DNA of 61,147 bases. Source: Candidatus Woesearchaeota archaeon (GTDB lineage Archaea; Nanobdellota; Nanobdellia; Woesearchaeales; ARS49). Below the pieces are notes generated by a model, which searched no databases, was not told where the DNA came from, and saw nothing but the letters and a program-made list of their open reading frames with translations. Below, one piece after another: positions 13,822 through 38,022 of the stretch. Each line of letters begins with the position of its first letter. Position 1 is the stretch's first letter. Position numbers and translations under genes: made by a program. Location of the stretch: the NCBI GenBank assembly GCA_016929895.1, contig JAFGHW010000048.1:1-61147 (forward strand), given 5' to 3'.

Positions 13822-15267
13822 ATGAAATTTAAAAGAATTCTGTTAATAGTACCTCCTTTTCCAGGTGTTAATCAAGGAAAAAATGTGCTCTTATTGGGGG
13901 TTGGGTATATTTCTCAATATTTGTTAGATAATGGTATACAAAATACGGTTTTTGATATGCGTCTTGGATATTCTGTAAAAGATCTTAAAAAAATAATTTT
14001 AGAATATCGACCGGACTTAATAGGCATGCAGATAATGACATATCGGCATGACATTGCATATGATATCATAAATGAGATTGTAGGCGGAAATTATAAGATT
14101 GTTCTTGGAGGGCACCACGTCTCTACTATTGATGCAGAGATACTCCGACAAACAAAAGCAGATTTTGCTATACGAATGGAAGGAGAAGATGCAATGCTAG
14201 AATTATGCCAAGGAAAACCTTATGAAACAATAAAAAATCTGATTTACCGTAAAGATGGCAAAATAATACAAAATTCTTTGCGTCCGTTTATAGAAGATCT
14301 TGATAGACTAACTTTTCCAAGATACGAACGCTTTGAATTATCAAAATACGATGAGCAATTACCAATTACAACTTCAAGAGGATGCCCGTTTCAATGTATT
14401 TACTGTCCTTGCGCAGCTACTATTGGTCGGCTATTCCGCGTTAGAAGCCCAGAAGATGTAATTAAAGAACTTAATTATTGGTATCATAAAGGTCATAAAA
14501 GATTTGCTTTTGTAGATGATAATTTCACACTCTTCCCGGAAAGAGTTCATAAATTATGCAGGTTAATAGAAAAAAATTGTTTGAAAGATTTAGATATTTA
14601 TTGTCAGGGAATACGCGCAGATAAAGTAAATCTAGAGCTTCTTAAAACTATGAGAAAAGCTGGATTTAGCCAATTAGGAATTGGCGTTGAAGTTGGCAAT
14701 GATAAAATGTTAAAAATAATTAAAAAGGGAGAAAAAAGAGAACACATAGAACAAGCTGCACAATGGGCTATTGAAGTAGGGTTTGATGTTCAATTTTATT
14801 GTATGATTGGTCTTCCGTACGAAACTGTTCAAGATGTGGAGGAGACTTTTCAACTTGCTTTAAAATTCCCAATAGCCGATGTTCATTTTCATAATGTTAT
14901 CCCTTTTCCAAAAACAGAACTTTATGAATGGGTTAAAAAAAATAATTACTCAATCGGCGATCTTGATAAATCTCTTATTGATAGAGAGCATTTTTCAAGA
15001 CAACCTTTTTTTGAAACACCAGAACTTCCTGCAAAAGAAAGAATACGCCTTCTTAAAAAAGCGCAAAAAATCGAGAAAATAGTTTTAAAACATTATTTTA
15101 CTCGTAAAATGACGCCTTCTTTTGGAAGATTTTCTGGCCTTCTAGCATTTTTTTTCTTTTTTGGTCCGATACATAAATTAGTAACTATAACTTTCCAAAC
15201 TAAAATGGGAAAATTTTTTATTAGAACTTTTTTAGATAAATACCATATAGACGTTCATTATTATTGA
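13822..15267 (+). CDS. B12-binding-domain radical SAM enzyme (class B)
   Basis: The N-terminal part looks like a cobalamin-binding domain (ILLIVPPFPG...LGVGYISQYL). CPFQCIYC lies at nt 14383-14406. The ATG at 13822 is preferred over the track TTG at 13819. Confidence 0.85.
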   Translation: MKFKRILLIVPPFPGVNQGKNVLLLGVGYISQYLLDNGIQNTVFDMRLGYSVKDLKKIILEYRPDLIGMQIMTYRHDIAYDIINEIVGGNYKIVLGGHHVSTIDAEILRQTKADFAIRMEGEDAMLELCQGKPYETIKNLIYRKDGKIIQNSLRPFIEDLDRLTFPRYERFELSKYDEQLPITTSRGCPFQCIYCPCAATIGRLFRVRSPEDVIKELNYWYHKGHKRFAFVDDNFTLFPERVHKLCRLIEKNCLKDLDIYCQGIRADKVNLELLKTMRKAGFSQLGIGVEVGNDKMLKIIKKGEKREHIEQAAQWAIEVGFDVQFYCMIGLPYETVQDVEETFQLALKFPIADVHFHNVIPFPKTELYEWVKKNNYSIGDLDKSLIDREHFSRQPFFETPELPAKERIRLLKKAQKIEKIVLKHYFTRKMTPSFGRFSGLLAFFFFFGPIHKLVTITFQTKMGKFFIRTFLDKYHIDVHYY

Positions 15268-15303
15268 GTTAGTTTACACAAATTACGTCGCGGGGTTATA
15301 TTA

Positions 15304-16422
15304 ATGAGAATAAAATGTTTTACACCATCTAATTTTGTAACAGGAGGAGTTGCACAGTGCAGTCATTCTATAAAATTATCTCTCGATAAAAGAGGCAAGA
15401 AAATCAGAATAGAACCAAATGACCAATTTGACACAAGCAATCCTTTTTATTTTATAAAAAAAGCTCTGCGGAGCAGTAATTGCGACGTTCTTTTAGTTCA
15501 GTATAACGCCGATCTTTTTGGAAACCTATTTGGAGTCAATGGGGTTTATGCTTTTATCTTTTATTTTTTAGTAAAACTAGCTAATGTAAAAATAGCGACA
15601 ACGATTCATGATATCCCGGCATTAAATAAATATACTAAATTTCAACAAAAAGTATTAAGACTATTATTTTTTCCGGTTTTATTTTATAGCGATAAAATAA
15701 CAGTGCATACAAATGAAGCAAGGTCTCTTATTCTTGAATATGGTTGTAAAAAAGATAAATTAGTAAAAGTTGAACATGGCATAAATGTTGCTGGCATAAA
15801 AATACAAAATAAAAATGTCGCAAAAAAGAAAATTAGAAAAAAAAATAAAAAAATAATATTCGCGTGGGGATTTATACGACCCTCTAAGGGTTATGAAAAA
15901 GTTATTGCGGTTATGCCAAAATTGTCTAAAGAAATCGTATTTATTATTGCGGGGCCTGTATACAACAGAAATAAAAAAAATCGCGCATCTGTTGATTTAA
16001 AATATTGCAATTATTTAAAAGCGTTAACAAGACGATTAAAACTAAATAAACGCATTTTTATTGAAGATAGACGGCTAACAGATAAAGAAATCGAGCTGTA
16101 TATGAGTGCTGCAGATATTTCTATATTACCTTATAAGTTTATTACCCAATCAGGAGTTTTATCTAGGTCTTTTGCGTATAAAAGGATAATCCTTGCATCA
16201 AATGTGCCTCCATTTCCATCAATAAAAAAAGATTATGGAAGCATAGAAACGTATAAATTAAACGATGAAGAAGATTTGATAAACAAAATAAAATTATTGT
16301 TATACAACAAAAGAAGAATTAAGAATCTTAATAAAAAAGTAGAACAAATCCGTAAAATAAGAGATTGGGATAATATAAGTATCCAATTGTGGGATTTATT
16401 TGAAAACATTTATAAATTATAA
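15304..16422 (+). CDS. GT4-like glycosyltransferase, paralog A
   Basis: 372 aa with a GT-B C-terminal half (MSAADISILPYKFITQSGVLSRSFAYKRIILAS). It is a clear paralog of 18750-19880. Confidence 0.75.
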   Translation: MRIKCFTPSNFVTGGVAQCSHSIKLSLDKRGKKIRIEPNDQFDTSNPFYFIKKALRSSNCDVLLVQYNADLFGNLFGVNGVYAFIFYFLVKLANVKIATTIHDIPALNKYTKFQQKVLRLLFFPVLFYSDKITVHTNEARSLILEYGCKKDKLVKVEHGINVAGIKIQNKNVAKKKIRKKNKKIIFAWGFIRPSKGYEKVIAVMPKLSKEIVFIIAGPVYNRNKKNRASVDLKYCNYLKALTRRLKLNKRIFIEDRRLTDKEIELYMSAADISILPYKFITQSGVLSRSFAYKRIILASNVPPFPSIKKDYGSIETYKLNDEEDLINKIKLLLYNKRRIKNLNKKVEQIRKIRDWDNISIQLWDLFENIYKL

Positions 16423-16446
16423 ACCACCCTCTTGGTGATGTAAAAA

Positions 16447-17499
16447 ATGAAAATAGCTTTAATAACAGGAATAACTGGTCAAGATGGAGTATATTTAGCA
16501 GACTTTTTATTGAAAAAAGGATACGACGTATATGGAGGATTCCGCCGATTAAGTACGCCCAATTTTTGGAGATTAAAAGATATGGAAGTATTCGATAAAA
16601 TTAAATTAGTTCCATTGGATCTTTCAGATCAAAGTTCTATGATGAACTTTTTAGAAAAGATAAAGCCTGATGAAATTTATAATCTGGCTGCGCAAAGTTT
16701 TGTGGGAGTCTCTTTTGAACAGCCAATTCATTCTGGCGATATAACCGGGTTAGGAGTAACAAGATTAATAGATACGATTAGAACATTAAGCCCTAAATCA
16801 AAATTTTACCAAGCATCTTCCAGTGAAATGTATGGAGATGTAGGCGATGCTGTGCCGCAAGATGAAACTACTGTATTTAAACCAAGAAGCCCTTATGCTG
16901 CCGCAAAAACTTATGCTCATTATATTGTTCAAAATTATAGAAGCGCCTATAACCTTTATGCATGTTCAGGAATATTGTTTAACCATGAATCACCGTATAG
17001 AGGAATAGAATTTGTAACAAGAAAAATTACCAATGCTGTTGCAAGAATTAAACTGGGATTGCAAAAAGAATTAACTTTAGGCAATATAGATGCTCAAAGA
17101 GATTGGGGCTTTGCGGGAGATTATGTTCAAGCAATGTGGATGATGCTTCAGCAGGACAAGCCCGATGATTATGTGATCGCAACTAATGAAGCATATACAG
17201 TCAGAGATTTTGCTAAAAAATCATTTGAGATTGCAGGATTAAATTATGAAGACTATACAAAAACTGATACGAAATTTATGAGACCATCTGATGTTCATCT
17301 ATTAAAAGGAAATCCTCAAAAAGCAAAAGATAAAATGGGCTGGGAACCAAAAGTTAATTTTAATGAATTAATAAAAATGATGGTAGAGCGAGATATCCAA
17401 AGATGGCGAAGATATCTGAAAGGAGAAGTTTTTCCATGGGACGCCATAAATGCAGAAGGCTGGGAAGTAACTTCTTTACCATCCTATAGGTTTACATAA
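16447..17499 (+). CDS. gmd: GDP-mannose 4,6-dehydratase
   Basis: 350 aa. Motifs are MKIALITGITGQDGVYLADFLLKKGY, SSSEMYG, YAAAK (YxxxK) and ILFNHESPYRG, all characteristic of Gmd. Confidence 0.93.
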   Translation: MKIALITGITGQDGVYLADFLLKKGYDVYGGFRRLSTPNFWRLKDMEVFDKIKLVPLDLSDQSSMMNFLEKIKPDEIYNLAAQSFVGVSFEQPIHSGDITGLGVTRLIDTIRTLSPKSKFYQASSSEMYGDVGDAVPQDETTVFKPRSPYAAAKTYAHYIVQNYRSAYNLYACSGILFNHESPYRGIEFVTRKITNAVARIKLGLQKELTLGNIDAQRDWGFAGDYVQAMWMMLQQDKPDDYVIATNEAYTVRDFAKKSFEIAGLNYEDYTKTDTKFMRPSDVHLLKGNPQKAKDKMGWEPKVNFNELIKMMVERDIQRWRRYLKGEVFPWDAINAEGWEVTSLPSYRFT

Positions 17500-17500
17500 T

Positions 17501-18661
17501 ATGGAAAAAGAAAATATTAAAACAATACCCGTATGTACAATTACGCTCCGTGGCAATGAAAGAAAATATGTGGAGAATTGTCTTTATACCGGTTGGATAT
17601 CTTCCAAAGGAAAATATGTCGAACTATTTGAAAAGAAGTTTGCAGATTTTTGTAATGTGAAATTTGCTGTTTCTTGTGTTAATGGAACTGCTGCACTGCA
17701 TTTAGCGTTAGAATCTCTAGGTATTACTCAAGGAGATGAAGTTATTATTCCAGATTTCACATTTGTTGCCACCGCAAATGCTGTACGCTATTCCCGGGCG
17801 AAACCTATTTTAGTTGATTCCGAATTAGATACTTGGAATATTGATGTTGACAGAATCGAAGAAAAAATAACTCCAAAAACAAAAGCAATAATTCCCGTGC
17901 ATATATATGGACATCCTGTAAATATGGATCAGATTAAAAAAATTGCAAAAAAATATAGTTTATATGTTATTGAAGATGCTGCGCAAGCACACGGAGCAGA
18001 ATATAAAGGGAAAAAGGCGGGTAGTTTAGGCGATGTTGGATGCTTTAGTTTCTTTGCGAATAAAATAATAACCACTGGTGAAGGAGGTATGCTTGTAACA
18101 GACAATGAAAAAGTAGCTAATAGAGCAAAATCGCTTCGAAATCACGCGTCTGACACTAAATTGTTTAACGTCAATAGGTATTTTCATGAAGCGCTAGGAT
18201 ATAATTATAGGATGAGTAATATACATGCGGCTGTTGGTCTAGCACAAATGGAATATGCCCAAGATTTAGTCGACGCGAGAATTGAAAATGCAAAGAAATA
18301 TCATTCATTATTAAAGGATATTCCAGGACTAACTCTTCCTCTTTGCAAATCATGGGCAAAAAATGTTTATTGGATGTATAGCATATTGGTCAAACCTGAA
18401 TTTGGTATAACAAAAAATGAATTGATGGCGGCGCTGTATAATCAAGAGATAGGGACAAGATCTTTTTTTTATCCTATAAGCAGGCAACCTGCTTATTCAA
18501 AAGACAAATATATTTTGGGTAATTTTAATACTCAAGAATTAAAAATATCCAATTTGCTTTATGAACAAGGATTAACCCTTCCTTCAAGCAGCTCATTAAC
18601 AATTGAAGAAATAAAAAGAGTTGCAGAAACTATTAGAAGTTTGTCATTGCAAAAATCTTAA
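17501..18661 (+). CDS. DegT/DnrJ/EryC1-family PLP aminotransferase; GDP-perosamine-synthase-like by context
   Basis: 386 aa. The PLP lysine is retained (FSFFANKIITTGEGG), so a ColD-type dehydratase is unlikely. The ATG lies 2 nt after the gmd stop. Confidence 0.8.
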   Translation: MEKENIKTIPVCTITLRGNERKYVENCLYTGWISSKGKYVELFEKKFADFCNVKFAVSCVNGTAALHLALESLGITQGDEVIIPDFTFVATANAVRYSRAKPILVDSELDTWNIDVDRIEEKITPKTKAIIPVHIYGHPVNMDQIKKIAKKYSLYVIEDAAQAHGAEYKGKKAGSLGDVGCFSFFANKIITTGEGGMLVTDNEKVANRAKSLRNHASDTKLFNVNRYFHEALGYNYRMSNIHAAVGLAQMEYAQDLVDARIENAKKYHSLLKDIPGLTLPLCKSWAKNVYWMYSILVKPEFGITKNELMAALYNQEIGTRSFFYPISRQPAYSKDKYILGNFNTQELKISNLLYEQGLTLPSSSSLTIEEIKRVAETIRSLSLQKS

Positions 18662-19880: not shown

Positions 19881-19905
19881 AAATATAATATGTAACAGAT
19901 GCTTT

Positions 19906-21141: not shown

Positions 21142-22509
21142 ATGTTTTTAAAATTCGAAAAATTTATAAATAACCTTGAAGTGTTTTATTTACCCGAGGA
21201 AGGAGACTATAAGCACAATGTAGGTATTAGAATGGATAAACAGCCAAAAATTGCGTTGATACAGCCTGATAGCCCTTTTTTAACATGCCCTCTTGCTTTT
21301 CCAAATCTTGGTTTAATTTATATTTCATCGTATCTTAGAAAGAATGGCATGTCCAATGTAGAATTTTATGATTTAACAGGGGGCGGAAAACTTCCAGACA
21401 ACCTCCGGGCAGATATTTTTGGTTTTTCTTCTCAAATAACCCAATTTGAAAACGTTGTTGAAATAAGCAAACAACTTAGGAAGAATAATCCGAATTCGCT
21501 TTTTGTCATAGGGGGGCCATTCTCAAGCCACAGCCCTAAAATTTGTTTGAATGCGGGTTTTGATATAGCTGTGATAGGAGAAGGCGAGATTGCTTTTTTA
21601 CAAATCATAAAGGAGTTCCCAAACGCAAGAAAAGGAGAGCATATTTCAAAAACATTTGTAGACCCAAATGGTTTATTTCCTGATTGGGATGCAATAAATC
21701 CATTAAGATATAAATACCAATTAGAAGGAAAACGATGCGTAAACATAATGACAAAAAGAGGAAATTGCCCGTATCACTGCACTTTCTGCGCAAAATCTGA
21801 GGCAGGAAAAAGCCCATTGAGATTCAGAAGTGTTAATGATGTACTGGATGAAGTAAAATACCTAAAAAACAAATATGGATTTGGTTCTATTGCAATTTAC
21901 GATGATGATGTTCTTATAGACAAAAAAAGAGATATGGAAATATTCGGGGGATTAAAGCAGCTAGGAATGCCTTACAGATGTATGACCCGAGCGAATCTAG
22001 CGACAAGAGACGATTTAAAATATCTTAAAGAAACAGGATGTGCTGAAATTTGTGTTGGGATTGAAACAGCAGATCCTTTCATACACGAAAAAGTAATAAG
22101 AAAAGGCACAACAATAGAGCAAAGTACAGAGTTTATCAGAAACTGCAAGGAGTTAGGGCTTAGGGTTAAAGCCTTTCTTATGATAGGATTACCGAGCGAA
22201 AGCAGAGAAACAGTTGAAAAAACAAAACAATGGCTAAAATCTGTAAAACCAGATAACTTTGACATATCTGTATTTACACCATATCCTGGTTCTGATATTT
22301 ATGAGCACAAAGACAACTACGAGATTGATTGGGACGAAAATTATTTAAAGACAATCTGGTTTTCAGGAGAAGCACAATACGGTCGCTGTGCTGTAAGAAC
22401 ACCTTATCTTTCTTCAGATGAAATTCTGAAATTAAAGAACGAGATAGAACAGGAGTTTGGTAGAAAAGAAGGAGGCGCCACTGATTATTGGGGGCCCTTA
22501 AAAGAATAA
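21142..22509 (+). CDS. B12-binding-domain radical SAM enzyme (class B)
   Basis: The B12-like domain reads KIALIQPDSP...LGLIYISSYL. CPYHCTFC lies at nt 21766-21789. The true start may be the internal ATG near 21232 (MDKQPKIALIQ). Confidence 0.85.
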   Translation: MFLKFEKFINNLEVFYLPEEGDYKHNVGIRMDKQPKIALIQPDSPFLTCPLAFPNLGLIYISSYLRKNGMSNVEFYDLTGGGKLPDNLRADIFGFSSQITQFENVVEISKQLRKNNPNSLFVIGGPFSSHSPKICLNAGFDIAVIGEGEIAFLQIIKEFPNARKGEHISKTFVDPNGLFPDWDAINPLRYKYQLEGKRCVNIMTKRGNCPYHCTFCAKSEAGKSPLRFRSVNDVLDEVKYLKNKYGFGSIAIYDDDVLIDKKRDMEIFGGLKQLGMPYRCMTRANLATRDDLKYLKETGCAEICVGIETADPFIHEKVIRKGTTIEQSTEFIRNCKELGLRVKAFLMIGLPSESRETVEKTKQWLKSVKPDNFDISVFTPYPGSDIYEHKDNYEIDWDENYLKTIWFSGEAQYGRCAVRTPYLSSDEILKLKNEIEQEFGRKEGGATDYWGPLKE

Positions 22510-22511
22510 AA

Positions 22512-23759: not shown

Positions 23760-24386
23760 TTATTTTTTTAGGCAAGTTCTAATATCATTAATACTTTCTA
23801 TGATTAAATCTGGTTTGTAATTTTCTAAAAATTTTCTGGCGCGTAAGCCTGTTAAAACTGCTATTGTTTGTATTCCAAGATTTTTTCCAACACTAATCTC
23901 TTCTTCTGTGTCTCCTACAATTACTGATTGATCTTTAGCGAATAAACTACTTTTTAAAATCAGATCTTTCTTAGAAACAGTCCCAGAAACAAGAATTTCA
24001 TCAAAAATATTTAAAATCTTCATTTTTCTTAGCTGCGTGAACAGATTATTTTTATTTTTTCTTTTGGTTAGAAGAATTACTTTATTATTTTCTTTTAATT
24101 TTTTAATACTTTCAATAGAATTAGCAATTAATCTATCAAATTCCAGAAATTTTTCATCTTCGATCATGTCTTTTCTTTTTTCCATATATCCCTGTATAAA
24201 GTTTTCATTATTAAATGTTTTTTTTATAATCTCCTCCTCTGGAATTTTTATTTTTTTAAGATTCCAATATTCTATTTTTGATAATATTCTTTTTTCTTTC
24301 ATTAAATCTCTGTAAATAGAATATAGCTTATCTGAGTTATCGATGATAACTCCATCAAAATCGCAAAAAATAACCTTATTTTTCAT
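23760..24386 (-). CDS. HAD-superfamily phosphatase/hydrolase
   Basis: 208 aa with HAD motif I FCDFDGVII, motif II LLTKR and motif IV VGDTEEE. Confidence 0.75.
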   Translation of the reverse strand: MKNKVIFCDFDGVIIDNSDKLYSIYRDLMKEKRILSKIEYWNLKKIKIPEEEIIKKTFNNENFIQGYMEKRKDMIEDEKFLEFDRLIANSIESIKKLKENNKVILLTKRKNKNNLFTQLRKMKILNIFDEILVSGTVSKKDLILKSSLFAKDQSVIVGDTEEEISVGKNLGIQTIAVLTGLRARKFLENYKPDLIIESINDIRTCLKK

Positions 24387-26457: not shown

Positions 26458-27216
26458 ATGTTCAAAAAAAGTATTAGTGTAGTTATTCCTGCGTATAATG
26501 AAGAAGAACTGATAGAAAAAACAACTTTAGATCTTAAGAAATACTTGTCTTCTTTGAAATTAAAAAACCTAATAAGCTCTTATGAAATAATTATTTCTGT
26601 AAACGGATCCAAGGATAGAACAGAAGAATTTTCAAGAAATCTTTCTAAAAAGTATAATAACATAAAGTGCATTGTGACACGAAAAAAAGGAATGGGCCTT
26701 GCTTTAAGAAACGGCATTAAAGCATCTTCGAAAGACTTGATAACTTTCATTGCTGCAGATGGCGAAGCTTTAACTGATTTTATTGAAAGAGCGATTCTCA
26801 CTTTAAATCATTATGACTTTATCAGCGGTTCAAGATATCTTGTTAAAAATCAAGTAAAGGGCTCAAGCTTTTTAAGACTATTCTTAAGTATGGGGTTTGC
26901 TTTTTTTATAAAAATCTTTTTTTCAACGAGATTTAGCGAAGTTGGAACAGTAAAATTATTCGAACGAAAATGGGCCCAAAGAATAATTGATAAATGTAAA
27001 AGAAATGACGCAAGTTGGCAAGTGGAAATATTGTATTATGCATTAACAAGCGGTTTGAAAATAAAAGAAATACCAGTTTATATCAAGATAAAAAAAGAAG
27101 GAAGAAAATCAAAAGTTAAAATCTTAAGAGAAATTTATTATTTCTTGATGACCACATTAAAATTTAGTCTTGCTTTAAGACTTAACCAATTTAAAAAATT
27201 ATTAAGAAAGTTTTAG
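26458..27216 (+). CDS. GT2 glycosyltransferase
   Basis: 252 aa with VVIPAYNEE, VNGSKDRT and IAADGE. A GGGAGGT Shine-Dalgarno-like sequence lies about 10 nt upstream. Confidence 0.85.
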   Translation: MFKKSISVVIPAYNEEELIEKTTLDLKKYLSSLKLKNLISSYEIIISVNGSKDRTEEFSRNLSKKYNNIKCIVTRKKGMGLALRNGIKASSKDLITFIAADGEALTDFIERAILTLNHYDFISGSRYLVKNQVKGSSFLRLFLSMGFAFFIKIFFSTRFSEVGTVKLFERKWAQRIIDKCKRNDASWQVEILYYALTSGLKIKEIPVYIKIKKEGRKSKVKILREIYYFLMTTLKFSLALRLNQFKKLLRKF

Positions 27217-28202
27217 ATATTGATTGTTCTATTTTTTTCCCCAGAATCTAAAATTGCTAAGGCAATCCGAAGAACTTTTCTTGCCTGTTCTGGTTTTATT
27301 AATACTTCTTCTTTTCCTAGAACGCTGTTAACAAAATTTTGAATCTCTAATCTTAATGGCTCGTCTTTTATTACTGGAAAACTTGTTACTTTTCCAACAG
27401 ACACATAACCACCCTGAAAAATATTTTCTTTTTCTTCTGAAAAATCTGCATTTTCATAAAAATCGATTCTTTGCTGATCATAAGAACATTTAAGCATCCC
27501 TTTTGTTCCGTAAATTTCTATTTCTCTCAATCTTTTTGGCGATATCCAACTTATTTCACAAGATCCTTTTACTTTGTTTTCAATGTCAAGCAGTATTTTT
27601 GCGTAAATCTCTTGTTTTTCTTCAACAATTAACTTAGAATAAACCTCTTTTATATCGCCAATAAGATATTCTATAACATCAATATCATGAACTGCTAAGT
27701 CTATAAGAACTCCTCCGGGAGAACCATATAATCTCTTTGGAAAAGGTCCAATTCTAGAAGTTTTAACAAGATAAGGTTTTCCTATTTGATTATTTTTTAT
27801 CAATTCTTTTAATTTGGTAACTGTAGGATTAAACCTTTCAACATGACCAACAGTTAATATTTTGTTTTTCTGTTTTGCCAAATTAACCATTTCATCTGCA
27901 TCTTCGATTGTTTCTGTTATTGGTTTTTCAACCATAACATGCGTATTATGTTCAAGACATTTTAAAACAACATCTTTATGATATTTTGTAGGAACCGCCG
28001 CGATAACTGCATCTGGTTTTTCTTTTTCAAGCATTTCGATATGATTACTATAACCTTTTACATTATATTTTTCTTTTGCAAAATTTAATTTCTCAGGATT
28101 TGATTCAGATATAACTATTTCTGTAATTCCAGGCATTGTAGAAGAGATTCTCAAATGATGCGAACCCATTGCTCCTATTCCTATTATTCCTAGTTTTATC
28201 AT
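27213..28202 (-). CDS. Gfo/Idh/MocA-family NAD-dependent sugar oxidoreductase (WbpB-like)
   Basis: 329 aa with a Rossmann motif LGIIGIGAMGSHH and the EKP motif (MVEKPI). Confidence 0.82.
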   Translation of the reverse strand: MIKLGIIGIGAMGSHHLRISSTMPGITEIVISESNPEKLNFAKEKYNVKGYSNHIEMLEKEKPDAVIAAVPTKYHKDVVLKCLEHNTHVMVEKPITETIEDADEMVNLAKQKNKILTVGHVERFNPTVTKLKELIKNNQIGKPYLVKTSRIGPFPKRLYGSPGGVLIDLAVHDIDVIEYLIGDIKEVYSKLIVEEKQEIYAKILLDIENKVKGSCEISWISPKRLREIEIYGTKGMLKCSYDQQRIDFYENADFSEEKENIFQGGYVSVGKVTSFPVIKDEPLRLEIQNFVNSVLGKEEVLIKPEQARKVLRIALAILDSGEKNRTINI

Positions 28203-28648
28203 TTTTCTAATTTTTTTATCTCAACATTTCTATTTTCATCTACATAAACTTTAGCCACCACTTTAGCTGGAATCCCCATTGCAACTGAAGAATCAGGAAT
28301 ATCTTTGGTAACAACAGAACCAGACCCGATTATGCATTGTTTTCCTATTTTCACACCCATCATTATAGTCGAGTTTGCTCCTATAAACGTATTATCGCCT
28401 ATCTTTACAGGTTTGCTCTCGATAATAACCCTATTTATTGTTCCATCTTCATTGAATTTCTTATTTGCCACACATCTTTTAGCTGAACTATGAGTGTATA
28501 TATGCACTCCAGCGCTGATATCACAATTAATACCTATCTCAAGTTCACCACTGCCGTCTATGACAGTAAAAGGACCAATCCAAGTTCCTTTACCAATTTT
28601 AGGGTTTCCGACGATTACCGCATGTTCATTATAATTATTTTTTTCCAT
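28199..28648 (-). CDS. Hexapeptide-repeat (left-handed beta-helix) sugar N-acetyltransferase (WbpD-like)
   Basis: 149 aa with the hexapeptide run IGDNTFIGANSTIMMGVKIGKQCIIGSGSVV. It shares a 4-nt overlap with the downstream gene. Confidence 0.82.
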   Translation of the reverse strand: MEKNNYNEHAVIVGNPKIGKGTWIGPFTVIDGSGELEIGINCDISAGVHIYTHSSAKRCVANKKFNEDGTINRVIIESKPVKIGDNTFIGANSTIMMGVKIGKQCIIGSGSVVTKDIPDSSVAMGIPAKVVAKVYVDENRNVEIKKLEK

Positions 28649-29587
28649 TTAATATCTTTCGGGATTTTCAGCAATTTCTTTTGCGAATTCTGCTAAGCCG
28701 TCTTTGGCATCAACCGTAACCTTGAATCCAAGCATTTTTTGAATCTTGGTTATGTCTGCTCTTCTTTCATTTACTATCACTTTTCTTCCATCAAATTCAG
28801 GCACAACCTGTGCATCTAAGCTGTTAATCAATATATACGCCAAATCTTTTATTGTAGTAGAAACTCCAGTTCCTACATTGAATATCTCATTTTCAACGTT
28901 ATTTTTCATTGCGAGAATATTTGCCTGTACAATATCCTTAACATTTACAAAATCCATTGATTGCTTTCCTTCTCCGGCGATAATTGGACGTTCTTTGTTA
29001 ATAATTCTTTTAATAAACACACTGATAACAGAAGTATAATATGCGTCAGGTTTTTGACCACTTCCGTACACGTTAAAATATCTAAGAATATTGTATTTTA
29101 GTCCAGAACGGGCATAAAACTTTAACAATTGCTCGCTTGCTAATTTTGCTAAGCAATAAGGCGTGACTGGATTTAATTCAGCATCTTCTTTCATCGGAAG
29201 CACTTTTGGGTCTCCATACACAGAAGCAGAAGACGAAAAAATAATTCTTTTGATATTATGTTCAAGAGCAGATTTAAACACATTATTTGACCCAAGTAAA
29301 TTAATTTCAATAGATTCTTTAGGAAATTTGATACTATAATTGATACAAACCGCAACAAGATGGAATACATACTTGACGCCTTCCATTGCTTTATCAACAT
29401 CGCCCTTGTTTCTTACATCTCCCTTAAAAAATTCGACTTTATCAGAATCAATTAAATCTTTTAATGACTCTGTGCCAGAACGGTTTAAATTGTCTAAAAC
29501 CCGAACATCATGCCCTTCCTTAACCAGTTCTCTAACTAAATTACTCCCTATAAATCCTGTTCCTCCTGTCACTAATATTTTGCTCAT
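28649..29587 (-). CDS. NAD-dependent nucleotide-sugar epimerase/dehydratase (extended SDR)
   Basis: 312 aa with VTGGTGFIGSNL, SSASVYG and YCLAK (YxxxK). Confidence 0.85.
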   Translation of the reverse strand: MSKILVTGGTGFIGSNLVRELVKEGHDVRVLDNLNRSGTESLKDLIDSDKVEFFKGDVRNKGDVDKAMEGVKYVFHLVAVCINYSIKFPKESIEINLLGSNNVFKSALEHNIKRIIFSSSASVYGDPKVLPMKEDAELNPVTPYCLAKLASEQLLKFYARSGLKYNILRYFNVYGSGQKPDAYYTSVISVFIKRIINKERPIIAGEGKQSMDFVNVKDIVQANILAMKNNVENEIFNVGTGVSTTIKDLAYILINSLDAQVVPEFDGRKVIVNERRADITKIQKMLGFKVTVDAKDGLAEFAKEIAENPERY

Positions 29588-30708
29588 TTTAATATCTCCT
29601 TTAATTCTGAAACAATATAATCTATTTCTTCAAAAGTCAATTCGTTGTACATTGGCAAAGCAAGGCTTTGCTCAAAAACTATTTTCGTAACCGGAAAATC
29701 TTGTTCATTACATTCTGCCACATTGCTATAAACCGGTTGCATATGCAAAGCATAAGTCCCTATTTGGGTTTGAATGCCTTTTTCTTTAAGTCGGGTAATC
29801 AAATCATTCCTGTTTATATTTTTATCTAACAAGATAGTGTATGCTTGATAAACATGCCTATTGTATTCCTCTGCAACAGGGCACTGTACTTGTTTGATAT
29901 CTTTTAGTTTTTCATTGTAATATTCCGCCAATTGTCTTCTTTTTTCAATAAACTTTTCAGATCTTTTCAGCTGAATCAAGGTAATTGCTGCGGCAATATC
30001 GCTAAGTTTGTAGTTATAACCCAATTTAGTGAAAGTAGGGATATGAAAATCTTTTTCTCTGGAAAACGCAGAAGTCATACCAAAACAAGACAAACTCCTG
30101 ATAGTGTCTGCTATTTCTTGATTGTTAGTTGTAATTATTCCTCCTTCTCCAGAAGTAATATTTTTTCTTGCATGAAAAGAAAAACAGCCAACATCACCCA
30201 TGCTGCCAGCAAATCTTCTTTTATACTTATTTCCAACGGCGCAGGCTGCGTCTTCGATTACAAATAGACTATGTTTTTTTGCAATTTTTATAATAGAATC
30301 CATATCCGCACACAATCCAAACATATGCACAGGAATTATTGCCTTGGTATTCTTGGTTATCTTTTTTTCAATCAGTTTGGTATTAATGTTGAACGTCGTA
30401 GGATCAATGTCAATGAAAACCGGTTTAGCATTGACATATAAAACTGCATGGGCTGTTGCAGGGAAAGTAAAATCGGGAACAATAACTTCATCTCCTCTGC
30501 CAATACCCAAAGCAAGCAACGCTAAATGAAGAGCAGCAGTACAATTGCTAATGCAAATAGCATGTTTTACACCGATATATTTAGCAAATTCTTCTTCCAG
30601 TTCTTTATTTTTAGGCCCTTGTCCGGCCACCCATCCTGTTTCAAGAACCTTTTTTATTTCCTCAGTTTCTTCTTTGTCAAAAAATGGCTTGCTAAGCGGT
30701 ATATTCAT
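29584..30708 (-). CDS. DegT-family PLP sugar aminotransferase (WbpE-like)
   Basis: 374 aa. The PLP lysine sits in FSFHARKNITSGEGG. It shares a 4-nt overlap with the SDR gene. Confidence 0.88.
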   Translation of the reverse strand: MNIPLSKPFFDKEETEEIKKVLETGWVAGQGPKNKELEEEFAKYIGVKHAICISNCTAALHLALLALGIGRGDEVIVPDFTFPATAHAVLYVNAKPVFIDIDPTTFNINTKLIEKKITKNTKAIIPVHMFGLCADMDSIIKIAKKHSLFVIEDAACAVGNKYKRRFAGSMGDVGCFSFHARKNITSGEGGIITTNNQEIADTIRSLSCFGMTSAFSREKDFHIPTFTKLGYNYKLSDIAAAITLIQLKRSEKFIEKRRQLAEYYNEKLKDIKQVQCPVAEEYNRHVYQAYTILLDKNINRNDLITRLKEKGIQTQIGTYALHMQPVYSNVAECNEQDFPVTKIVFEQSLALPMYNELTFEEIDYIVSELKEILK

Positions 30709-30752: not shown

Positions 30753-30859
30753 TTTGCCTATTAATGCTTCATTAGTCTTTTTCTTATTTTTCGGAAAATC
30801 TGCGAAAGATTTTTAAATCAAATAGTGTATGTTGATTCCATAATTGGGTGGAGGGGTTT

Positions 30860-31717
30860 ATGAATTTTTGCCCTTTATGTAACATAAGAAAAATACAAGT
30901 AAAATATACTCTAAAGTTAGACAGATCATTAAAAGATACTTCTTATTTTAAAATCATACAATGTAAAGTCTGCAAACTTGTATTCAGTAGCCTTTTGGAT
31001 TATCCGGAACAAATTGATTCTGGGTATGAGGAAGAATATTTCTCAAAATATGATACATCATTTGAAGACAATCAAAAGACTAGAACTTTTAAAAAAGCCT
31101 TGAAATTATTGAATAAAGCCAAGCCTAAAAAAGGAAAAATACTTGACTTTGGCTGTGCCGAAGGAAACTTTTTAGTTCTTGCTAAACAAACAGGCTGGAA
31201 TGTTTGTGGAATAGATTTATCTAAATTTGCAGCAAAAATAGCTCGAAAAAGAGGTCTGAACGTATTCAATAAAACAATAAATGACGCAAAATTCCAAAAA
31301 GAATCATTTGATGTGATTACTTTATGGGATGTAATAGAACATTTAAGCAATTTAAATGATACTTTCAAAGAATTCAAAAGAGTATTAAAAAAAGATGGTT
31401 TATTAGTTATACGAACACCGAATGAAAAAAGCATTTTTCATCTAATTGCGCATTTATCATATATTTTGAGTTTTAAAAAAATTAAATTTCTCTTAAACAC
31501 AATTTATCATTCAGATCATCTTTATTATTTTTCAAAACAAACATTAACAAAAATATTGGAAAAAAATGGATTTAAAATCAGAAAAATAATTATGAATGAT
31601 CAAACAACTATGTTTTATAAAAATCCAGTTTTGAAATGTTTAGTTTGGAAAATCCGATTTTTTGGTGTACTTTTGAATAAACAACATGCAATGCTCGCTA
31701 TTGCAATCAAAAAATAA
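30860..31717 (+). CDS. Class-I SAM-dependent methyltransferase with N-terminal zinc ribbon
   Basis: It has CPLC...CKVC and SAM motif I ILDFGCAEGNF. A GGTGGAGGGG sequence at 30847-30856 sits just upstream of the ATG at 30860; the track start at 30848 is a GTG. Confidence 0.8.
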   Translation: MNFCPLCNIRKIQVKYTLKLDRSLKDTSYFKIIQCKVCKLVFSSLLDYPEQIDSGYEEEYFSKYDTSFEDNQKTRTFKKALKLLNKAKPKKGKILDFGCAEGNFLVLAKQTGWNVCGIDLSKFAAKIARKRGLNVFNKTINDAKFQKESFDVITLWDVIEHLSNLNDTFKEFKRVLKKDGLLVIRTPNEKSIFHLIAHLSYILSFKKIKFLLNTIYHSDHLYYFSKQTLTKILEKNGFKIRKIIMNDQTTMFYKNPVLKCLVWKIRFFGVLLNKQHAMLAIAIKK

Positions 31718-31846: not shown

Positions 31847-33295
31847 ATGAGCGATGTGGTCTTAGTATATCCGATACCTACTAATGAACAAACTGAAACA
31901 ATGGGGCCTCCTTTGTCAATTTTGTATTTAGGTTCTTTTCTTGAAGATAAAGGATTTATTGTAGATTATTATGATGAACGAATATCACCAGTAGGTGTTT
32001 TAAAAGATTATTTGCGCGAAAAACCGCTTTTAATTGCAGTTTCTTCTATGACAGGATACCAACTTTTGGGAGCGCGAAGATCTTTGCAATTAGCAAAAGA
32101 AATAGCACCCGAAACTAAAACTATCTTAGGCGGAGTTCATGCTTCTTTAGTAGCTGAGCAATGTTTAAAAGAATCGTATGTTGACTTTGTATGTATCGGT
32201 GAAGGAGAGCTTACATTATTGGAACTTACTAAAATGCTAAAAGAAGGAAAACACGTTATGCATTCTATTTCAGGCTTAGGTTGGAAAGATCAAAATAATC
32301 GAGTTTTTATAAATAAAAAGAGAGATTTTATGGATTTAGATCAATCTGTGGCGCCGATAACAAAAAAATCTGCACCGTTATATGAGCATTATCCTTGGAA
32401 AAAAGTTCAAATATCCCGTGGATGCCCGCATCGGTGTGTATTTTGTTATAATACATATTTTAATGAGAGAAGATATCGCATCAAGTCAATTGATAAAATT
32501 GAAGAAGAATTAAAAGTATTAAAAGATTTTTTCCCTTCTATGAAACAAGTAACTCTTTTGAGCGATAATATTGGAAGAAACAAGACAAGAGTAAAAGCCA
32601 TTTCAGAACTCATGAAATCTTATAATTTTAAATGGCATACTGGTATTCGTTCTGAATATATTGACCAGGAAATGATAGATATTTTAGAATCTTCCTGCGA
32701 TTCTCTTTTTTTAGGAGTAGAAAGTGCTTCTCCTAGAATTATTAAATTTATTAATAAAGATAATACATCTGAAGATGCTTTGAATGCGGCAAAAATTATT
32801 TCTAAATCTTCGATAAAGCCGTATTATTCTTTTATGACTGGTTTTCCTGATGAAACAAAAGAAGAAATTCTTGCTTCGATGGATTTAGCCGATAAAATCC
32901 AAAAGATTGATCCGAAATCAATAATAACACCATTTTTTATATTCACTGCTTTTCCAGGAACAGAACTTTATAAATTTGCTTTAACATATGAAGGATATAC
33001 TAGTCCTAATAGTTTTGATGAATGGTCAAGTTTCAGTTTAAATCAAGTTAGTATGCCTTGGATGGATAAGAAGACAAGTAATTTAGCTTTGAATCTCTAT
33101 TATATCTCCATGCTTCTTTATCTAGAAGAAAAAGATTATTCAAGAACAAAATTTGAGAAGGCCTTTTTTAACTTTTTAAAATCCCGCGCAAGACAAAAAT
33201 GGCAAAATAGAGACTTCAATTTTGATATAGAAAGAGAGTTATTTACTAAATATAACGAAGATGTAAAAGTAAAACAACTTTCAAAAAAACTATAA
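31847..33295 (+). CDS. B12-binding-domain radical SAM enzyme (class B)
   Basis: 482 aa. The B12-like domain reads VVLVYPIP...LSILYLGSFL. CPHRCVFC lies at nt 32423-32446. A GGAGGGG sequence lies at 31831-31837. Confidence 0.85.
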   Translation: MSDVVLVYPIPTNEQTETMGPPLSILYLGSFLEDKGFIVDYYDERISPVGVLKDYLREKPLLIAVSSMTGYQLLGARRSLQLAKEIAPETKTILGGVHASLVAEQCLKESYVDFVCIGEGELTLLELTKMLKEGKHVMHSISGLGWKDQNNRVFINKKRDFMDLDQSVAPITKKSAPLYEHYPWKKVQISRGCPHRCVFCYNTYFNERRYRIKSIDKIEEELKVLKDFFPSMKQVTLLSDNIGRNKTRVKAISELMKSYNFKWHTGIRSEYIDQEMIDILESSCDSLFLGVESASPRIIKFINKDNTSEDALNAAKIISKSSIKPYYSFMTGFPDETKEEILASMDLADKIQKIDPKSIITPFFIFTAFPGTELYKFALTYEGYTSPNSFDEWSSFSLNQVSMPWMDKKTSNLALNLYYISMLLYLEEKDYSRTKFEKAFFNFLKSRARQKWQNRDFNFDIERELFTKYNEDVKVKQLSKKL

Positions 33296-33296
33296 A

Positions 33297-34754
33297 ATGA
33301 ATAAATCACAGTTTTTTTGGAGGTCTAATTTGAAAAAAAGAAAAGTTTTATTATTCAACCCCCCCGGCGCAAAAAGATATAATAGAGATACTTTCTGTAG
33401 CGGCACAACCAAGGGAAAATATTCGTGGCCACCACAAGATCTTCTGTGTTTGAGCGGAATCTTGTATGGGAAACACGATATTATAGTATTAGACGCCACA
33501 GTAGATATGATGGCAAAGGACGTATGTCTAAATAAAATAAAAGAGATGGATATCGACACTTTAATTTTTCTTACAGGAGTAGCATCATGGAAGGAAGATT
33601 CCGAATTTGTTAAAAAGATAAAAGAAATAAAAAAAGATTTAGATGTTATTGGAATAGGAGGATTTTTCTTGGCTATGGGCACAAAAATAATGAATGAAAA
33701 TCAATTTTTAAATGCCATATTGATGGATTTTACTTCTAATAATATTTTAACATATTTAGAAGGACCGACAGGAAAAATAGATAATATAATTTATAGAAGA
33801 AATAATGAGATAACAAATGGAGGAATCGTCCCCCCGAGTGGTATAACGTTCGCCTATCCCATCCCAAGACATGAAATGTTTCCAATAACAAGATATAAAC
33901 TACCCATAATTAAAAAACATCCATTTACAAACATTCTTTTTTCCTTAGGATGTGTTAATAAATGTAAATTTTGTCCTTATGGCGAAGGAAGCAAGATTCC
34001 TTATACTTTCAGAGACGTGGAAAATACTATAGAAGAAATGAAGTACATAAAATCATTAGGAATAAATGAAATAAGATTTATGGATTACAGTATTTCAATA
34101 AATAAACCGAATCTTAAAAAATTATGCGAAAGAATGATAGAAGAAAAATTCAACTTCACATGGCACGCCCTATCAAAAGTAACTGAGGTTGATGAAGAAT
34201 CACTTTCATTAATGAAAAAATCGGGATGCAAAACATTATTATTTGGTGTTGAAAATGGAGATCAAAGAATACTTGATATGTACGCAAAAGGAATAACTCT
34301 TGAAAGAATAAAATATATATTTGGAGTATGCAAAAAGCTAAAAATAGATACTCTGGCACATTTTATCATTGCTTTGCCTGGAGAGGATGAAGCTTCTGTC
34401 AATAAAACAATTGATTTCAGCATTGAATTAGATCCTGATTATGCTAATTTTTCAGTAGCGGCCCCTTATGTAGGAACTGCAATGCGTAAGGAAGCGATTG
34501 AAAAAGGATGGATTGACAAAAGATTTGAGAATGATATATTCTCTGATGCAGCACAATATCCCATAATGGAAACCGAAAAACTTACAAAAGAGCAGGTTTG
34601 GAAGTTGAAAAATAAAGCAGTAAGAAAATTCTTCTTTAGACCATCATATATATTAAAACGATTTATAAGAATAAGATCTTTAGACGATTTTATAGTACAG
34701 GCAAAAGTAGGTATATCGCTTATTCAAAATATGAAAAAAGCCGTATTTAAGTAA
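33297..34754 (+). CDS. B12-binding-domain radical SAM enzyme (class B), second of a tandem pair
   Basis: 485 aa with KVLLFNPPG...PPQDLLCLSGIL. CVNKCKFC lies at nt 33951-33974. The ATG lies 1 nt after the preceding stop. Confidence 0.8.
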   Translation: MNKSQFFWRSNLKKRKVLLFNPPGAKRYNRDTFCSGTTKGKYSWPPQDLLCLSGILYGKHDIIVLDATVDMMAKDVCLNKIKEMDIDTLIFLTGVASWKEDSEFVKKIKEIKKDLDVIGIGGFFLAMGTKIMNENQFLNAILMDFTSNNILTYLEGPTGKIDNIIYRRNNEITNGGIVPPSGITFAYPIPRHEMFPITRYKLPIIKKHPFTNILFSLGCVNKCKFCPYGEGSKIPYTFRDVENTIEEMKYIKSLGINEIRFMDYSISINKPNLKKLCERMIEEKFNFTWHALSKVTEVDEESLSLMKKSGCKTLLFGVENGDQRILDMYAKGITLERIKYIFGVCKKLKIDTLAHFIIALPGEDEASVNKTIDFSIELDPDYANFSVAAPYVGTAMRKEAIEKGWIDKRFENDIFSDAAQYPIMETEKLTKEQVWKLKNKAVRKFFFRPSYILKRFIRIRSLDDFIVQAKVGISLIQNMKKAVFK

Positions 34755-35129
34755 TTAAGGTTTTCTTAAAGTTCTGAAATAAAAGATTATTACTCCGATT
34801 ATTATAAGTATGGCAGATACATAAAGATAATATTCCTTAATTTTCACTTTAATAGTCATATTAATAAAATAAAGAAGGAAAGACTGTAAACCATACCCTG
34901 AACCTGTTCCTATAATAAGTCTTTCTATCTGTCCTATCTTGCCATAGAATAACAAACAAATAGAATATCCTGGTATTATGAAAAGATAGAAATGTGCAAT
35001 AGCCATTTTTAATACTAAAAATATATTCTCTTTATAATAATGGATTTGAAAAAATAAATAAAATAAGATAAAGGCAATAATTATTACTTTTAATTCATTT
35101 AATATTGCTTTTTTGACATCAGATTTCAT
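34755..35129 (-). CDS. Small integral membrane protein (about 4 TM helices), function unknown
   Basis: 124 aa, hydrophobic. Its start overlaps the stop of the upstream 596-aa membrane protein by 4 nt. Confidence 0.5.
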   Translation of the reverse strand: MKSDVKKAILNELKVIIIAFILFYLFFQIHYYKENIFLVLKMAIAHFYLFIIPGYSICLLFYGKIGQIERLIIGTGSGYGLQSFLLYFINMTIKVKIKEYYLYVSAILIIIGVIIFYFRTLRKP

Positions 35130-36916: not shown

Positions 36917-37023
36917 CTATATTATAATTAAAAGTGAATTTAAAAAACTTGCTATTTCTTGAATAGTCTTGGCTAACTTCAAATCCGCAACCTTTTTATA
37001 TTACGCAATAATAAGAAAAATTA

Positions 37024-38022
37024 ATGAAAATAACCATACGTTCAAAATTTTTGAACATAATAAGAGATTGGATATCTTCGCGATTAGCTAAGAACATAAT
37101 CACTAAAAAAATATTTTATTCAAAACCAATTACTAATAAGAAATGGGATCTTTTTTCTATAGAATTAACTAATCATTGTCCAATGAAGTGTGATGTTTGC
37201 CCAAGAACCAACAATATGACTCGGCCTTTAGGGTTCATGGATTTTTCATTGTTTAAAAAAATAATAGACCAAGCAAGCGAGAAAATAAATTCTGTGTGGC
37301 TTCATCAATTTGGAGACAGTTTAGTACATCCCGAATTTAAAGAATTTATTATTTATGCTCAAAACAAAGGAATCAAAACAAAATTATCTACAAATGCAAT
37401 ACTCTTAAATGAAGTTACATCTAAAAAATTGATAGAATCCGGCTTAGACAGACTGATTATTTCTTTGGATTCTACTGATGAAGAAAGTCAGACCAAAACT
37501 AGAGGAGTTCCTGGGATTTACAAAAAATCTGTTGAAAACGTTAAAAAGTTCTTAGAAGTAAGAAAATGCGCAGGGTCTAAAAAACCCAACACTATTTTAC
37601 AGATGATTGAATATGAATATACAAAAAATTTAGTTCCAATTTTTATAAATCAATGGAAAAATAATAGCGATCTGGATGAAATCTCGATTGGTACTTTTGT
37701 AAATTGGAACGGAGGAGTCGATAGAATCAATAACTACACAAAAAAATTAAGTTTATTACTGAGATTTGTTAAAAAATTCAATAAAAAGAAATCCCGATAT
37801 AATTGTTGTCATTTCCCATGGAGATCTTTATCTATTCTTTGGGATGGCACTGTTGTTCCTTGCTGTTTTGATTATGATGGTTTATATGTTTTAGGAAATG
37901 TTAAAGATCAGTCTCTTGATGAAATATGGAATGGAGAGAAAATGCAGGCTTTAAGAAATGAATTTATTCATAATAAAGTAACAAATAAATTATGCTCCAC
38001 TTGCCGCGGTAGATTTATATAA
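37024..38022 (+). CDS. Radical SAM enzyme with C-terminal SPASM-like Cys-rich domain
   Basis: 332 aa. CPMKCDVC lies at nt 37177-37200. The C-terminal cysteines are CCHFPW...VPCCFDYDG...CSTCRG. Confidence 0.8.
   Translation: MKITIRSKFLNIIRDWISSRLAKNIITKKIFYSKPITNKKWDLFSIELTNHCPMKCDVCPRTNNMTRPLGFMDFSLFKKIIDQASEKINSVWLHQFGDSLVHPEFKEFIIYAQNKGIKTKLSTNAILLNEVTSKKLIESGLDRLIISLDSTDEESQTKTRGVPGIYKKSVENVKKFLEVRKCAGSKKPNTILQMIEYEYTKNLVPIFINQWKNNSDLDEISIGTFVNWNGGVDRINNYTKKLSLLLRFVKKFNKKKSRYNCCHFPWRSLSILWDGTVVPCCFDYDGLYVLGNVKDQSLDEIWNGEKMQALRNEFIHNKVTNKLCSTCRGRFI

Follow-up and report, generated by a model that had tools for sequence, protein, structure and literature searches.

We describe a 61,147-nucleotide stretch of DNA (the window: positions 1 to 61,147 of contig JAFGHW010000048.1, assembly GCA_016929895.1, from a Candidatus Woesearchaeota archaeon; G+C 31%) and five genes in it that encode radical S-adenosylmethionine (SAM) enzymes. 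The window is a single very large archaeal glycan locus. The five open reading frames (ORFs) with a CX3CX2C motif lie between 13.8 and 38.0 kb, all on the + strand, and CxxxCxxC is absent from every other annotated ORF of the window. Their features and Pfam E-values are as follows.

13822..15267, + strand: R1, radical SAM with B12-binding domain, first gene of a Gmd/GT4 operon (Radical_SAM 1.4e-27, B12-binding 5e-14)
21232..22509, + strand: R2, radical SAM with B12-binding domain; the ORF opens at 21142 (Radical_SAM 1.9e-24, B12-binding 1.7e-12)
31847..33295, + strand: R3, radical SAM with B12-binding domain (Radical_SAM 1.5e-24, B12-binding 2.8e-20)
33297..34754, + strand: R4, AprD4-like radical SAM with a diverged Rossmann-type N-domain (Radical_SAM only, 4.6e-21)
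37024..38022, + strand: S5, radical SAM with a BtrN-like one-cluster (twitch/SPASM) tail (SPASM 6.8e-20, Radical_SAM 9.3e-15)

Domains and kinship of the five enzymes

A preliminary description of this DNA had placed five cluster motifs, and each translates exactly where it was put: CPFQCIYC in R1 (14383-14406), CPYHCTFC in R2 (21766-21789), CPHRCVFC in R3 (32423-32446), CVNKCKFC in R4 (33951-33974) and CPMKCDVC in S5 (37177-37200). The five proteins score 55.6-97.3 bits on PF04055 (gathering score 29.5). On PF02310 (gathering score 32.1), R1 scores 52.6, R2 47.7 and R3 72.8 bits. The SPASM-like tail reported for the fifth protein is borne out at 71.6 bits on PF13186 (gathering score 21.5), though it is of the twitch type. 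Since all of these scores exceed the gathering scores, the domain matches are far beyond chance. R2 likely starts at Met31 (21232), because its homologues begin near query residue 33-36.

Pairwise identity among R1-R4 is 23-27% over 213-428 aligned residues (E 1e-18 to 1e-26), and by these alignments the four are best described as ancient paralogues, homologous over most of their length. They had been thought to have little sequence in common beyond the cluster motif and not to be recent duplicates; the first half of that statement falls and the second stands, a recent duplication of the four genes being ruled out by the low identity and by each having relatives of its own (47-82%) elsewhere.

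Contacts to the cobalamin tail (a Gly-Gly on beta-4 and a Gly-Glu at the start of alpha-5) have been defined from the structures of OxsB, TsrM and TokK (PMC9204698). R1 carries LGGHH and MEGED (Gly-Gly at 97 and Gly-Glu at 122, with CPFQCIYC at residues 189-196), R2 carries IGGPF and GEGE, and R3 carries LGGVH and GEGE. We infer from these motifs and the PF02310 matches that R1-R3 bind cobalamin. In domain order and in the GG/GE motifs they resemble GenK, GenD1/GntE, Fms7, MoeK5 and Fom3, which were compared by description only. Rfam and tRNA scans of the window gave no matches, cobalamin riboswitches included; such a riboswitch is not expected in an archaeon.

Four cobalamin-binding-like N-domains had been counted, and R4 has to be taken out of that count. 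PF02310 finds no match in R4 even at E<=1, and is likewise absent in 28 of its 29 closest relatives (34-79% identity), the exception being P0028. In a profile-profile comparison (hhalign, probability 100, residues 10-437) the N-domains of R4 and the R1 family do align, and R4 has the GG motif; the Gly-Glu position reads DFT, which is conserved in the R4 family. Judged by these alignments the domain is B12-domain-like in descent and fold, and not demonstrably a cobalamin binder. Searched against the Protein Data Bank (PDB), the R4-family profile matches AprD4 at 173.5 bits (E 5.7e-50) and the best cobalamin enzyme, MgmA, at 82.5 bits (E 2.3e-22). An AlphaFold2 model of R4 (mean predicted local confidence, pLDDT, 87.7) has AprD4 as its top Foldseek match (6FD2, TM 0.77/0.82, E 4.7e-28), and the second match, at 3.3e-20, is eight orders of magnitude weaker. 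This preference for AprD4 is specific to R4, because the control model of R1 (pLDDT 92.7) fits MgmA (E 2.4e-25) and AprD4 (E 3.5e-24) about equally. For the same reason fold alone was discarded as a test for cobalamin binders.

AprD4 itself does not bind cobalamin, yet in similarity networks it falls among the B12 radical SAM enzymes (PMC12931638). Treating R4 as a cobalamin binder by default was rejected on the missing PF02310 match and on AprD4 being best by both profile and fold, and its earlier designation as a class B (cobalamin-dependent) enzyme is not credible, the closest characterised relative being B12-independent. R4 is AprD4-like and not an AprD4 orthologue: it scores 118.2 bits on the NCBIfam AprD4 model NF033070, whose cut-off is 500. 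Both proteins have a Rossmann-like N-domain that lacks cobalamin binding, a radical SAM barrel and a C-terminal domain, and an N-terminal PPxDL...G.L stretch aligns between them. AprD4 is the 1,2-diol dehydratase that acts on paromamine in the apramycin pathway, with AprD3 as partner reductase. AprD4 thus acts on an aminosugar, and the genes around R4 are aminosugar genes, candidate reductases among them. The two differ in setting: an actinomycete antibiotic pathway for AprD4, and for R4 a cell-surface glycan locus of DPANN archaea and some anaerobic bacteria. An identical R4 protein is encoded on a 42.7-kb contig of run SRR13394437.

The best PDB match of S5 is BtrN (4M7T, E 4.7e-11), and the alignment covers the radical SAM core as well as the tail; C262, C280, C324 and C327 of S5 fall on the C-terminal-domain cysteines 169, 188, 232 and 235 of BtrN. 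The tail holds six cysteines, and because the CX2CX5CX3C block of the full seven-cysteine SPASM domain is missing, S5 is read as a twitch enzyme with one auxiliary cluster. Its N-terminus is ~60 residues longer than that of BtrN. In the butirosin pathway BtrN oxidises a secondary alcohol of an aminocyclitol, and the ketone is then transaminated by a DegT-family aminotransferase; in the window a DegT gene likewise lies ~2 kb downstream of S5.

Relatives of these proteins are widespread. The R1 query retrieved 1,519 clusters at E<=1e-30 and the R2 query 1,352 representatives, both sets including other class B paralogues. The R1 family proper (>=40% identity) is large, with members in Woesearchaeota, Omnitrophota and Elusimicrobia; the named closest relatives of R1 and R4 are in Woesearchaeota and Nanoarchaeota genomes. 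R3 has relatives of 47-49% identity in several phyla. Five R2 relatives (P0266, P0274, P0305, P0340 and P0357) contain inteins with HNH or LAGLIDADG endonuclease domains, inserted between the B12 domain and the radical SAM core or within the core.

Glycan genes around the five enzymes, here and in other genomes

The genes that flank the five, and the two components that mark the locus as a whole, are listed by position (SDR, short-chain dehydrogenase/reductase; GT, glycosyltransferase family).

3127-4605: Polysacc_synt flippase
12995..13747, + strand: 250-aa ORF 5' of R1 (weak Methyltransf_23, E 0.0039, under threshold)
15304..16422, + strand: GT4 directly 3' of R1 (Pfam Glycos_transf_1, 2e-11)
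16447-17499, + strand: GDP-mannose 4,6-dehydratase, Gmd (TIGR01472 gmd, 421.5 bits, cut-off 415)
17501-18661, + strand: DegT aminotransferase (Pfam 1.3e-126; LegC-family model 364 bits, below cut-off)
18750-19880 and 19906-21117, + strand: GT4 pair 5' of R2 (Glycos_transf_1, 8.6e-14 and 1.6e-34)
22488-23663, + strand: DegT aminotransferase coupled to R2 (Pfam 6.2e-78; FSVRSEK motif, catalytic lysine in register)
23760-24386, - strand: HAD phosphatase (Pfam match)
24376-26370, - strand: ATP-grasp/SDR fusion protein (Pfam matches)
26458..27216, + strand: GT2, polyprenyl-phosphate sugar synthase-like (Glycos_transf_2, 9.1e-22)
27213..30708, - strand: amino-sugar set of four genes, namely GFO/IDH/MocA 3-dehydrogenase-like protein, hexapeptide acetyltransferase, SDR epimerase/dehydratase and DegT (Pfam)
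30848..31717, + strand: class I SAM methyltransferase 5' of R3 (Pfam Methyltransf_23, 3.3e-30)
34755-35129, - strand: small membrane protein with 3-4 helices (hydropathy profile)
35126-36916, - strand: 596-aa membrane protein with ~12 transmembrane helices and a soluble C-terminal domain (hydropathy profile)
38373-39326, + strand: flippase-like membrane protein 3' of S5 (TIGR00374, 61.1 bits, cut-off 43.2)
39345-40016, + strand: hexapeptide acetyltransferase 3' of S5 (Pfam)
40013-41083, + strand: DegT aminotransferase 3' of S5 (Pfam)
46755-49880, - strand: STT3/AglB oligosaccharyltransferase, 1041 aa (STT3 match, 3e-35)

The features of an Agl locus are present: AglB/STT3, a flippase and clustered glycosyltransferases. 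Thirteen glycosyltransferase genes were found (GT4 x5, GT2 x4, GT9 x2 and PMT_2, a membrane transferase type, x2), together with four DegT aminotransferase genes. STT3/AglB ends in an FKBP-type peptidyl-prolyl isomerase domain, a fusion of glycosylation to a folding catalyst. The earlier placing of the radical SAM genes inside a single large nucleotide-sugar and glycosyltransferase locus is upheld, and the link to sugars recurs in other genomes. So is their proximity to glycosyltransferase, aminotransferase or methyltransferase genes: R1 lies between the weakly methyltransferase-like 250-aa ORF and a GT4 gene, R2 between a GT4 gene and DegT, and R3 after a methyltransferase gene. Spacing is that of operons, with 36 nt between R1 and GT4, 1 nt between R3 and R4, and a 22-nt overlap of R2 with its DegT gene.

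Gmd and the DegT gene that follows it (16447..18661) read as a branch towards a GDP-4-amino-4,6-dideoxyhexose. Gmd, R2 and DegT stand contiguously again on metagenome contig L089 (49%, 71% and 68% identity), where DegT begins 1 nt downstream of the R2 relative and keeps its catalytic lysine. A 47% relative of R3 is located in another glycan locus, L007, and the 250-aa ORF has a 50% relative in L002 (the archaeal genome GCA_040961665.1).

Neighbours were counted around relatives of R1 and R2. The scan for R1-like genes, with one genome taken per species, gave 80 loci, all from metagenome-assembled genomes and spread over many phyla. Within 5.5 kb of the R1-like gene in the 15 closest loci (15 genomes, again of many phyla) are 113 ORFs, among them 13 GT4, 12 GT2, nine nucleotide-sugar SDR, seven class I methyltransferases, six PMT_2, four nucleotidyltransferases and three AsnB. 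The metagenome scan for R2, built on a 7-sequence alignment, yielded 143 ORFs around 16 genes: GT4 11, SDR 10, methyltransferase 10, GT2 9, DegT 4 and GT9 2.

Gene fusions point the same way. Radical SAM domains are joined to a sugar SDR in P0032 (828 aa), to GT2 in L006 and, as a tandem pair, to a glycosyltransferase domain in P0346. Among more distant relatives, fusions to a class I methyltransferase occur in P0197 (from the R3 search, 31% identity) and P0463 (from the R1 search). Methyltransferases of this class, adjacent or fused, are neutral between methylating and non-methylating chemistry.

The clustering of so many radical SAM genes had been called an unusual concentration for one glycan pathway. 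It is not unusual: when 41 loci of 15 kb or more were taken around R1-like genes, 13 held three to seven class B genes, and five of these 13 showed two or more sugar genes (the probes were insensitive). Arrays of four to seven class B genes within ~20 kb were seen in L071, L072, L026, L028, L030 and L051, whose hosts are Omnitrophota, an unclassified bacterium, Bathyarchaeia and Nanoarchaeia; in most of these arrays the probes picked up hardly any sugar genes or none.

We take sugars as the substrates because of the operon structure, the conserved gene order, the neighbour censuses and the fusions. On balance we favour, with some confidence, the reading that the five enzymes tailor the surface-glycan sugars of an anaerobic DPANN archaeon of Woesearchaeota/Nanoarchaeota type, in the individual roles proposed in the next section. 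The modified sugars may be carried on N-glycans or on another glycoconjugate.

Could the enzymes instead modify membrane lipids or the polyprenyl carrier, their position in the locus reflecting nothing more than a shared envelope function? Precedents are the radical SAM enzymes that modify archaeal tetraethers and the hopanoid methylases HpnP and HpnR. The core of S5 matches tetraether synthase (7TOL, E 1.7e-7), ladderane-lipid and HpnR models are among the matches, a geranylgeranyl-reductase-like gene lies in the window at 52464-53531, and the class B arrays of Bathyarchaeia are in loci with no detectable sugar genes. However, the Gmd-R2-DegT order is conserved and translationally coupled, the relatives scanned include fusions to sugar SDR and glycosyltransferase domains and none to a lipid enzyme, the censuses are dominated by glycosyltransferases, SDR and DegT, and the S5 tail aligns with BtrN and not with tetraether synthase. 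We regard a lipid substrate as improbable.

More improbable still is maturation of a peptide or protein, in which residues of a glycoprotein or of a ribosomal peptide would be methylated or cross-linked. ApyD, the C-methyltransferases of ribosomally synthesised peptides, MgmA and the SPASM peptide maturases set the precedent, and it is common for SPASM proteins to mature peptides. Among curated models R3 scores highest on ApyD (132 bits, cut-off 750), and MgmA is the best PDB sequence match for R1 and R3. These scores are far under the cut-offs, however, the context in other genomes is sugar metabolism, and no precursor-peptide gene, cluster-typical protease or transporter is found among the ORFs of the window.

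Candidate reactions and the delivery of the sugars

In the favoured reading the neighbouring genes would supply the substrates, sugar intermediates that are nucleotide-activated or linked to polyprenyl phosphate. R1-R3 would be cobalamin-dependent and would most likely place methyl groups on unactivated sugar carbons, C-methylation being put first as the reaction that predominates in the class. R2 would act on the Gmd-made GDP-6-deoxyhexose, just before or after the coupled aminotransferase. R4, cobalamin-free, would abstract a hydrogen next to a hydroxyl so that water is lost from the vicinal diol of an aminosugar, and the resulting keto-deoxy sugar would be reduced by a neighbouring SDR or GFO-type reductase, for a net deoxygenation. 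S5 would act as BtrN does, turning a secondary alcohol into a ketone without NAD and feeding the aminotransferase and N-acetyltransferase downstream. The sugar of the R4 module would be placed on dolichyl phosphate by GT2, flipped by the flippase-like protein and transferred on the outside by the 596-aa protein; this polyprenyl-phosphate route is proposed from a weak GT2 similarity, a flippase-like family match and membrane topology only.

The R4 module recurs. L002 has the R4 relative (69%), the small membrane protein (72%), the 596-aa-type protein (60%), the flippase-like protein (69%), DegT (72%), GT2 (59%) and the four-gene amino-sugar set (47-71%); L003, 3 kb long, holds a fragment of this module. 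The small membrane protein and a polytopic protein of ~590 aa follow every close R4 relative (L002 11449-13595; L003 1681-3128), and Pfam and PDB sequence searches gave no match for either protein bar a spurious DUF for the 596-aa one. Genes of R4 type stand in glycan context in the window, in L002, in L004 and L005 (L004 is an Omnitrophota genome), in L169 (a Bacteroidales contig) and in L170. The flippase-like gene adjoins R4-type or R3-type genes in L002, L006, L007 and L170.

With its ArnC/PgfS-like GT2, its flippase-like protein and its small and large membrane proteins, the R4 module resembles the Arn (ArnC/ArnEF/ArnT) and Gtr (GtrA/GtrB/Gtr) systems, and the DegT, SDR and acyltransferase genes of the Arn pathway also have counterparts in the R4 neighbourhood. 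It differs from both in that the 596-aa protein lacks detectable GT-C similarity and in that the GT2 scores (NCBIfam PgfS 46.8 bits, ArnC 35.1 bits) are far under cut-off. We know of no three-component polyprenyl-phosphate glycosylation system with a radical SAM enzyme. The dehydrogenase of the four-gene set reaches 270 bits on the archaeal UDP-GlcNAc 3-dehydrogenase model, under the cut-off of 450.

Several findings weigh against this reading, in whole or in part. The censuses are raw counts with no matched random-gene control, and the R4-type gene of L168 is in a non-glycan context. The 596-aa protein, which we propose as a GT-C-type transferase, is so assigned by topology alone, and no similarity to any GT-C family was detected. 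In the 21 kb around the R4 relative of L002, the locus most closely related to the window, there are no counterparts (>=35% identity) of R1, R2, R3 or S5; because of this we regard these four as accessory and not core, a pattern that fits interchangeable tailoring cassettes around a conserved module. R4 and AprD4 are only 21% identical and differ in the cluster motif (CX3CX2C in R4, CX3CX3C in AprD4), the match between S5 and BtrN reaches a modest 45.8 bits, and the model of R1 fits a cobalamin methylase (MgmA) and a non-cobalamin enzyme (AprD4) about as well as each other. None of the five proteins reaches an NCBIfam equivalog cut-off, the highest scores being 130-180 bits where the cut-offs stand at 250-750; S5 has 106 bits on its best model, a tungsten-cofactor maturase (cut-off 380). 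Because no cut-off is reached, homology does not establish the reaction type, methylation or other. The top curated model for R1, R2 and R4 is moreover a non-methylase, HpnJ (TIGR03471: R1 152.5, R2 151.5, R3 125.8 and R4 181.5 bits; cut-off 577.6), and cobalamin-dependent radical SAM enzymes are known to carry out ring contraction, cyclisation and other chemistry (PMC12931638, PMC9204698).

The last two points are also the ground for a different account of R1-R3, in which they use cobalamin and do not methylate, but rearrange or cyclise sugars (ring contraction as in HpnJ/OxsB, carbocycle or ether formation); the products would then be carbasugar or cyclitol-like units instead of C-methyl sugars. 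HpnJ converts a hopanoid-linked glucosamine, made by a glycosyltransferase and a deacetylase, to a cyclitol ether (PMC12583986), and OxsB and BchE give the class further non-methylating precedent. The lipid-linked sugar substrate of HpnJ parallels the one proposed for the R4 module; the HpnJ system differs in that no hpn genes are found in the window and in that the organism is an archaeon. Every HpnJ score is far under the family cut-off, however, and methylases predominate among the class members characterised so far (PMC9204698). We consider this account quite possible, if distinctly less probable than C-methylation; the genomic contexts make a role in modifying lipids or maturing peptides far less probable. 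The preliminary description had reserved the case that the closest homologs would be non-methylating enzymes with no link to sugars. HpnJ is non-methylating, and because its substrate is a lipid-linked aminosugar the sugar reading is untouched. What had been claimed, that several radical SAM enzymes modify the glycan, for instance with C-methylated aminosugars, thus keeps its sugar part; C-methylation is the likely chemistry by class, although no curated methylase cut-off is reached.

C-methylation of R1-R3 targets would have parallels, unactivated carbons being methylated in aminosugars, in a lipid-linked saccharide (MoeK5) and in a nucleotide-linked phosphonate (Fom3) (PMC9204698). GenK, GenD1/GntE, Fms7 and MoeK5 belong to antibiotic pathways, that is, to secondary-metabolite clusters, whereas R1-R3 are in a primary surface-glycan locus and in families with no characterised member.

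A methylated phosphonate had been suggested as well, and we find no link to one. At 806-3087 are two overlapping genes, one for a phosphonopyruvate decarboxylase (Ppd; TIGR03297 519 bits, cut-off 312) and one for an iron alcohol dehydrogenase (PsrA-like, 207 bits, under cut-off), and an ORF with no Pfam match (3-791) runs off the 5' end of the window. The pair suggest decoration with 2-hydroxyethylphosphonate. A distance of 11 kb, occupied by 10 genes, separates the pair from R1. Phosphonate methylation of Fom3/PhpK type was rejected because R1-R4 score 107.7-128.1 bits on the PhpK family TIGR04479 (cut-off 600), because the phosphonate genes are in another transcription unit, and because no phosphoenolpyruvate mutase ORF is found in the window.

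Other contents of the window bear on the glycan more widely. The ATP-grasp domain of the fusion protein has a PylC-like N-terminus; in L170 (5938-7933), beside the R4 relative there, ATP-grasp and SDR are separate adjacent genes, and in both places an HAD phosphatase gene follows. The set suggests ligation of an amino acid or carboxylate onto a sugar. A bacterial-type ADP-heptose pathway occupies 41071-45721 (an HldE-like kinase-cupin fusion, GmhB at 179.9 bits with a cut-off of 178, and heptose-1-phosphate adenylyltransferase) and is flanked by the two GT9 heptosyltransferases; it may have been transferred from bacteria. Among the glycosyltransferases is a protein of the sulfatase/phosphodiesterase superfamily (9512-11062, - strand; no membrane anchor predicted) that could transfer a phospho- or sulfo-substituent to the glycan or take one off. 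Four successive ORFs with no Pfam match (375, 524, 225 and 419 aa) lie within 53668-61031, followed by an 852-aa protein that combines Ig-like and cadherin-like domains with several hydrophobic segments; the ORFs of this region may be surface proteins that receive the glycan.

A possible glycan-tailoring toolkit

Nearly all characterised cases of sugar tailoring by radical SAM enzymes come from antibiotic pathways. A literature search found no study of it in the surface glycans of archaea or candidate phyla, an absence that is not proof, and no earlier description of class B radical SAM genes in archaeal or DPANN glycan loci. R1-R4 and S5 are most likely glycan-tailoring members of known enzyme classes, each from an uncharacterised family.

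Tentatively, we see in them part of a glycan-diversifying radical SAM toolkit shared among uncultured anaerobes (DPANN archaea, bacteria of the candidate phyla radiation (CPR), Omnitrophota, Elusimicrobiota, Planctomycetota and others), comprising cobalamin-dependent C-methylation, deoxygenation of the AprD4 type and NAD-independent oxidation of the BtrN type. To our knowledge these three chemistries are so far known only from the tailoring of aminoglycoside antibiotics. R4 would carry the AprD4 chemistry beyond antibiotics. The Gmd-R2-aminotransferase triad offers a concrete starting substrate, which can be purchased or made enzymatically, and a single assigned reaction would allow thousands of genes to be annotated and new sugar structures (C-methyl, deoxy, carba) to be predicted on the surfaces of organisms that cannot be cultured. 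If the toolkit is real, the enzymes of antibiotic pathways would have branched off from an older, far larger family that serves primary glycans, and the genome-reduced DPANN symbionts would depend on host cobalamin for building their cell surface.

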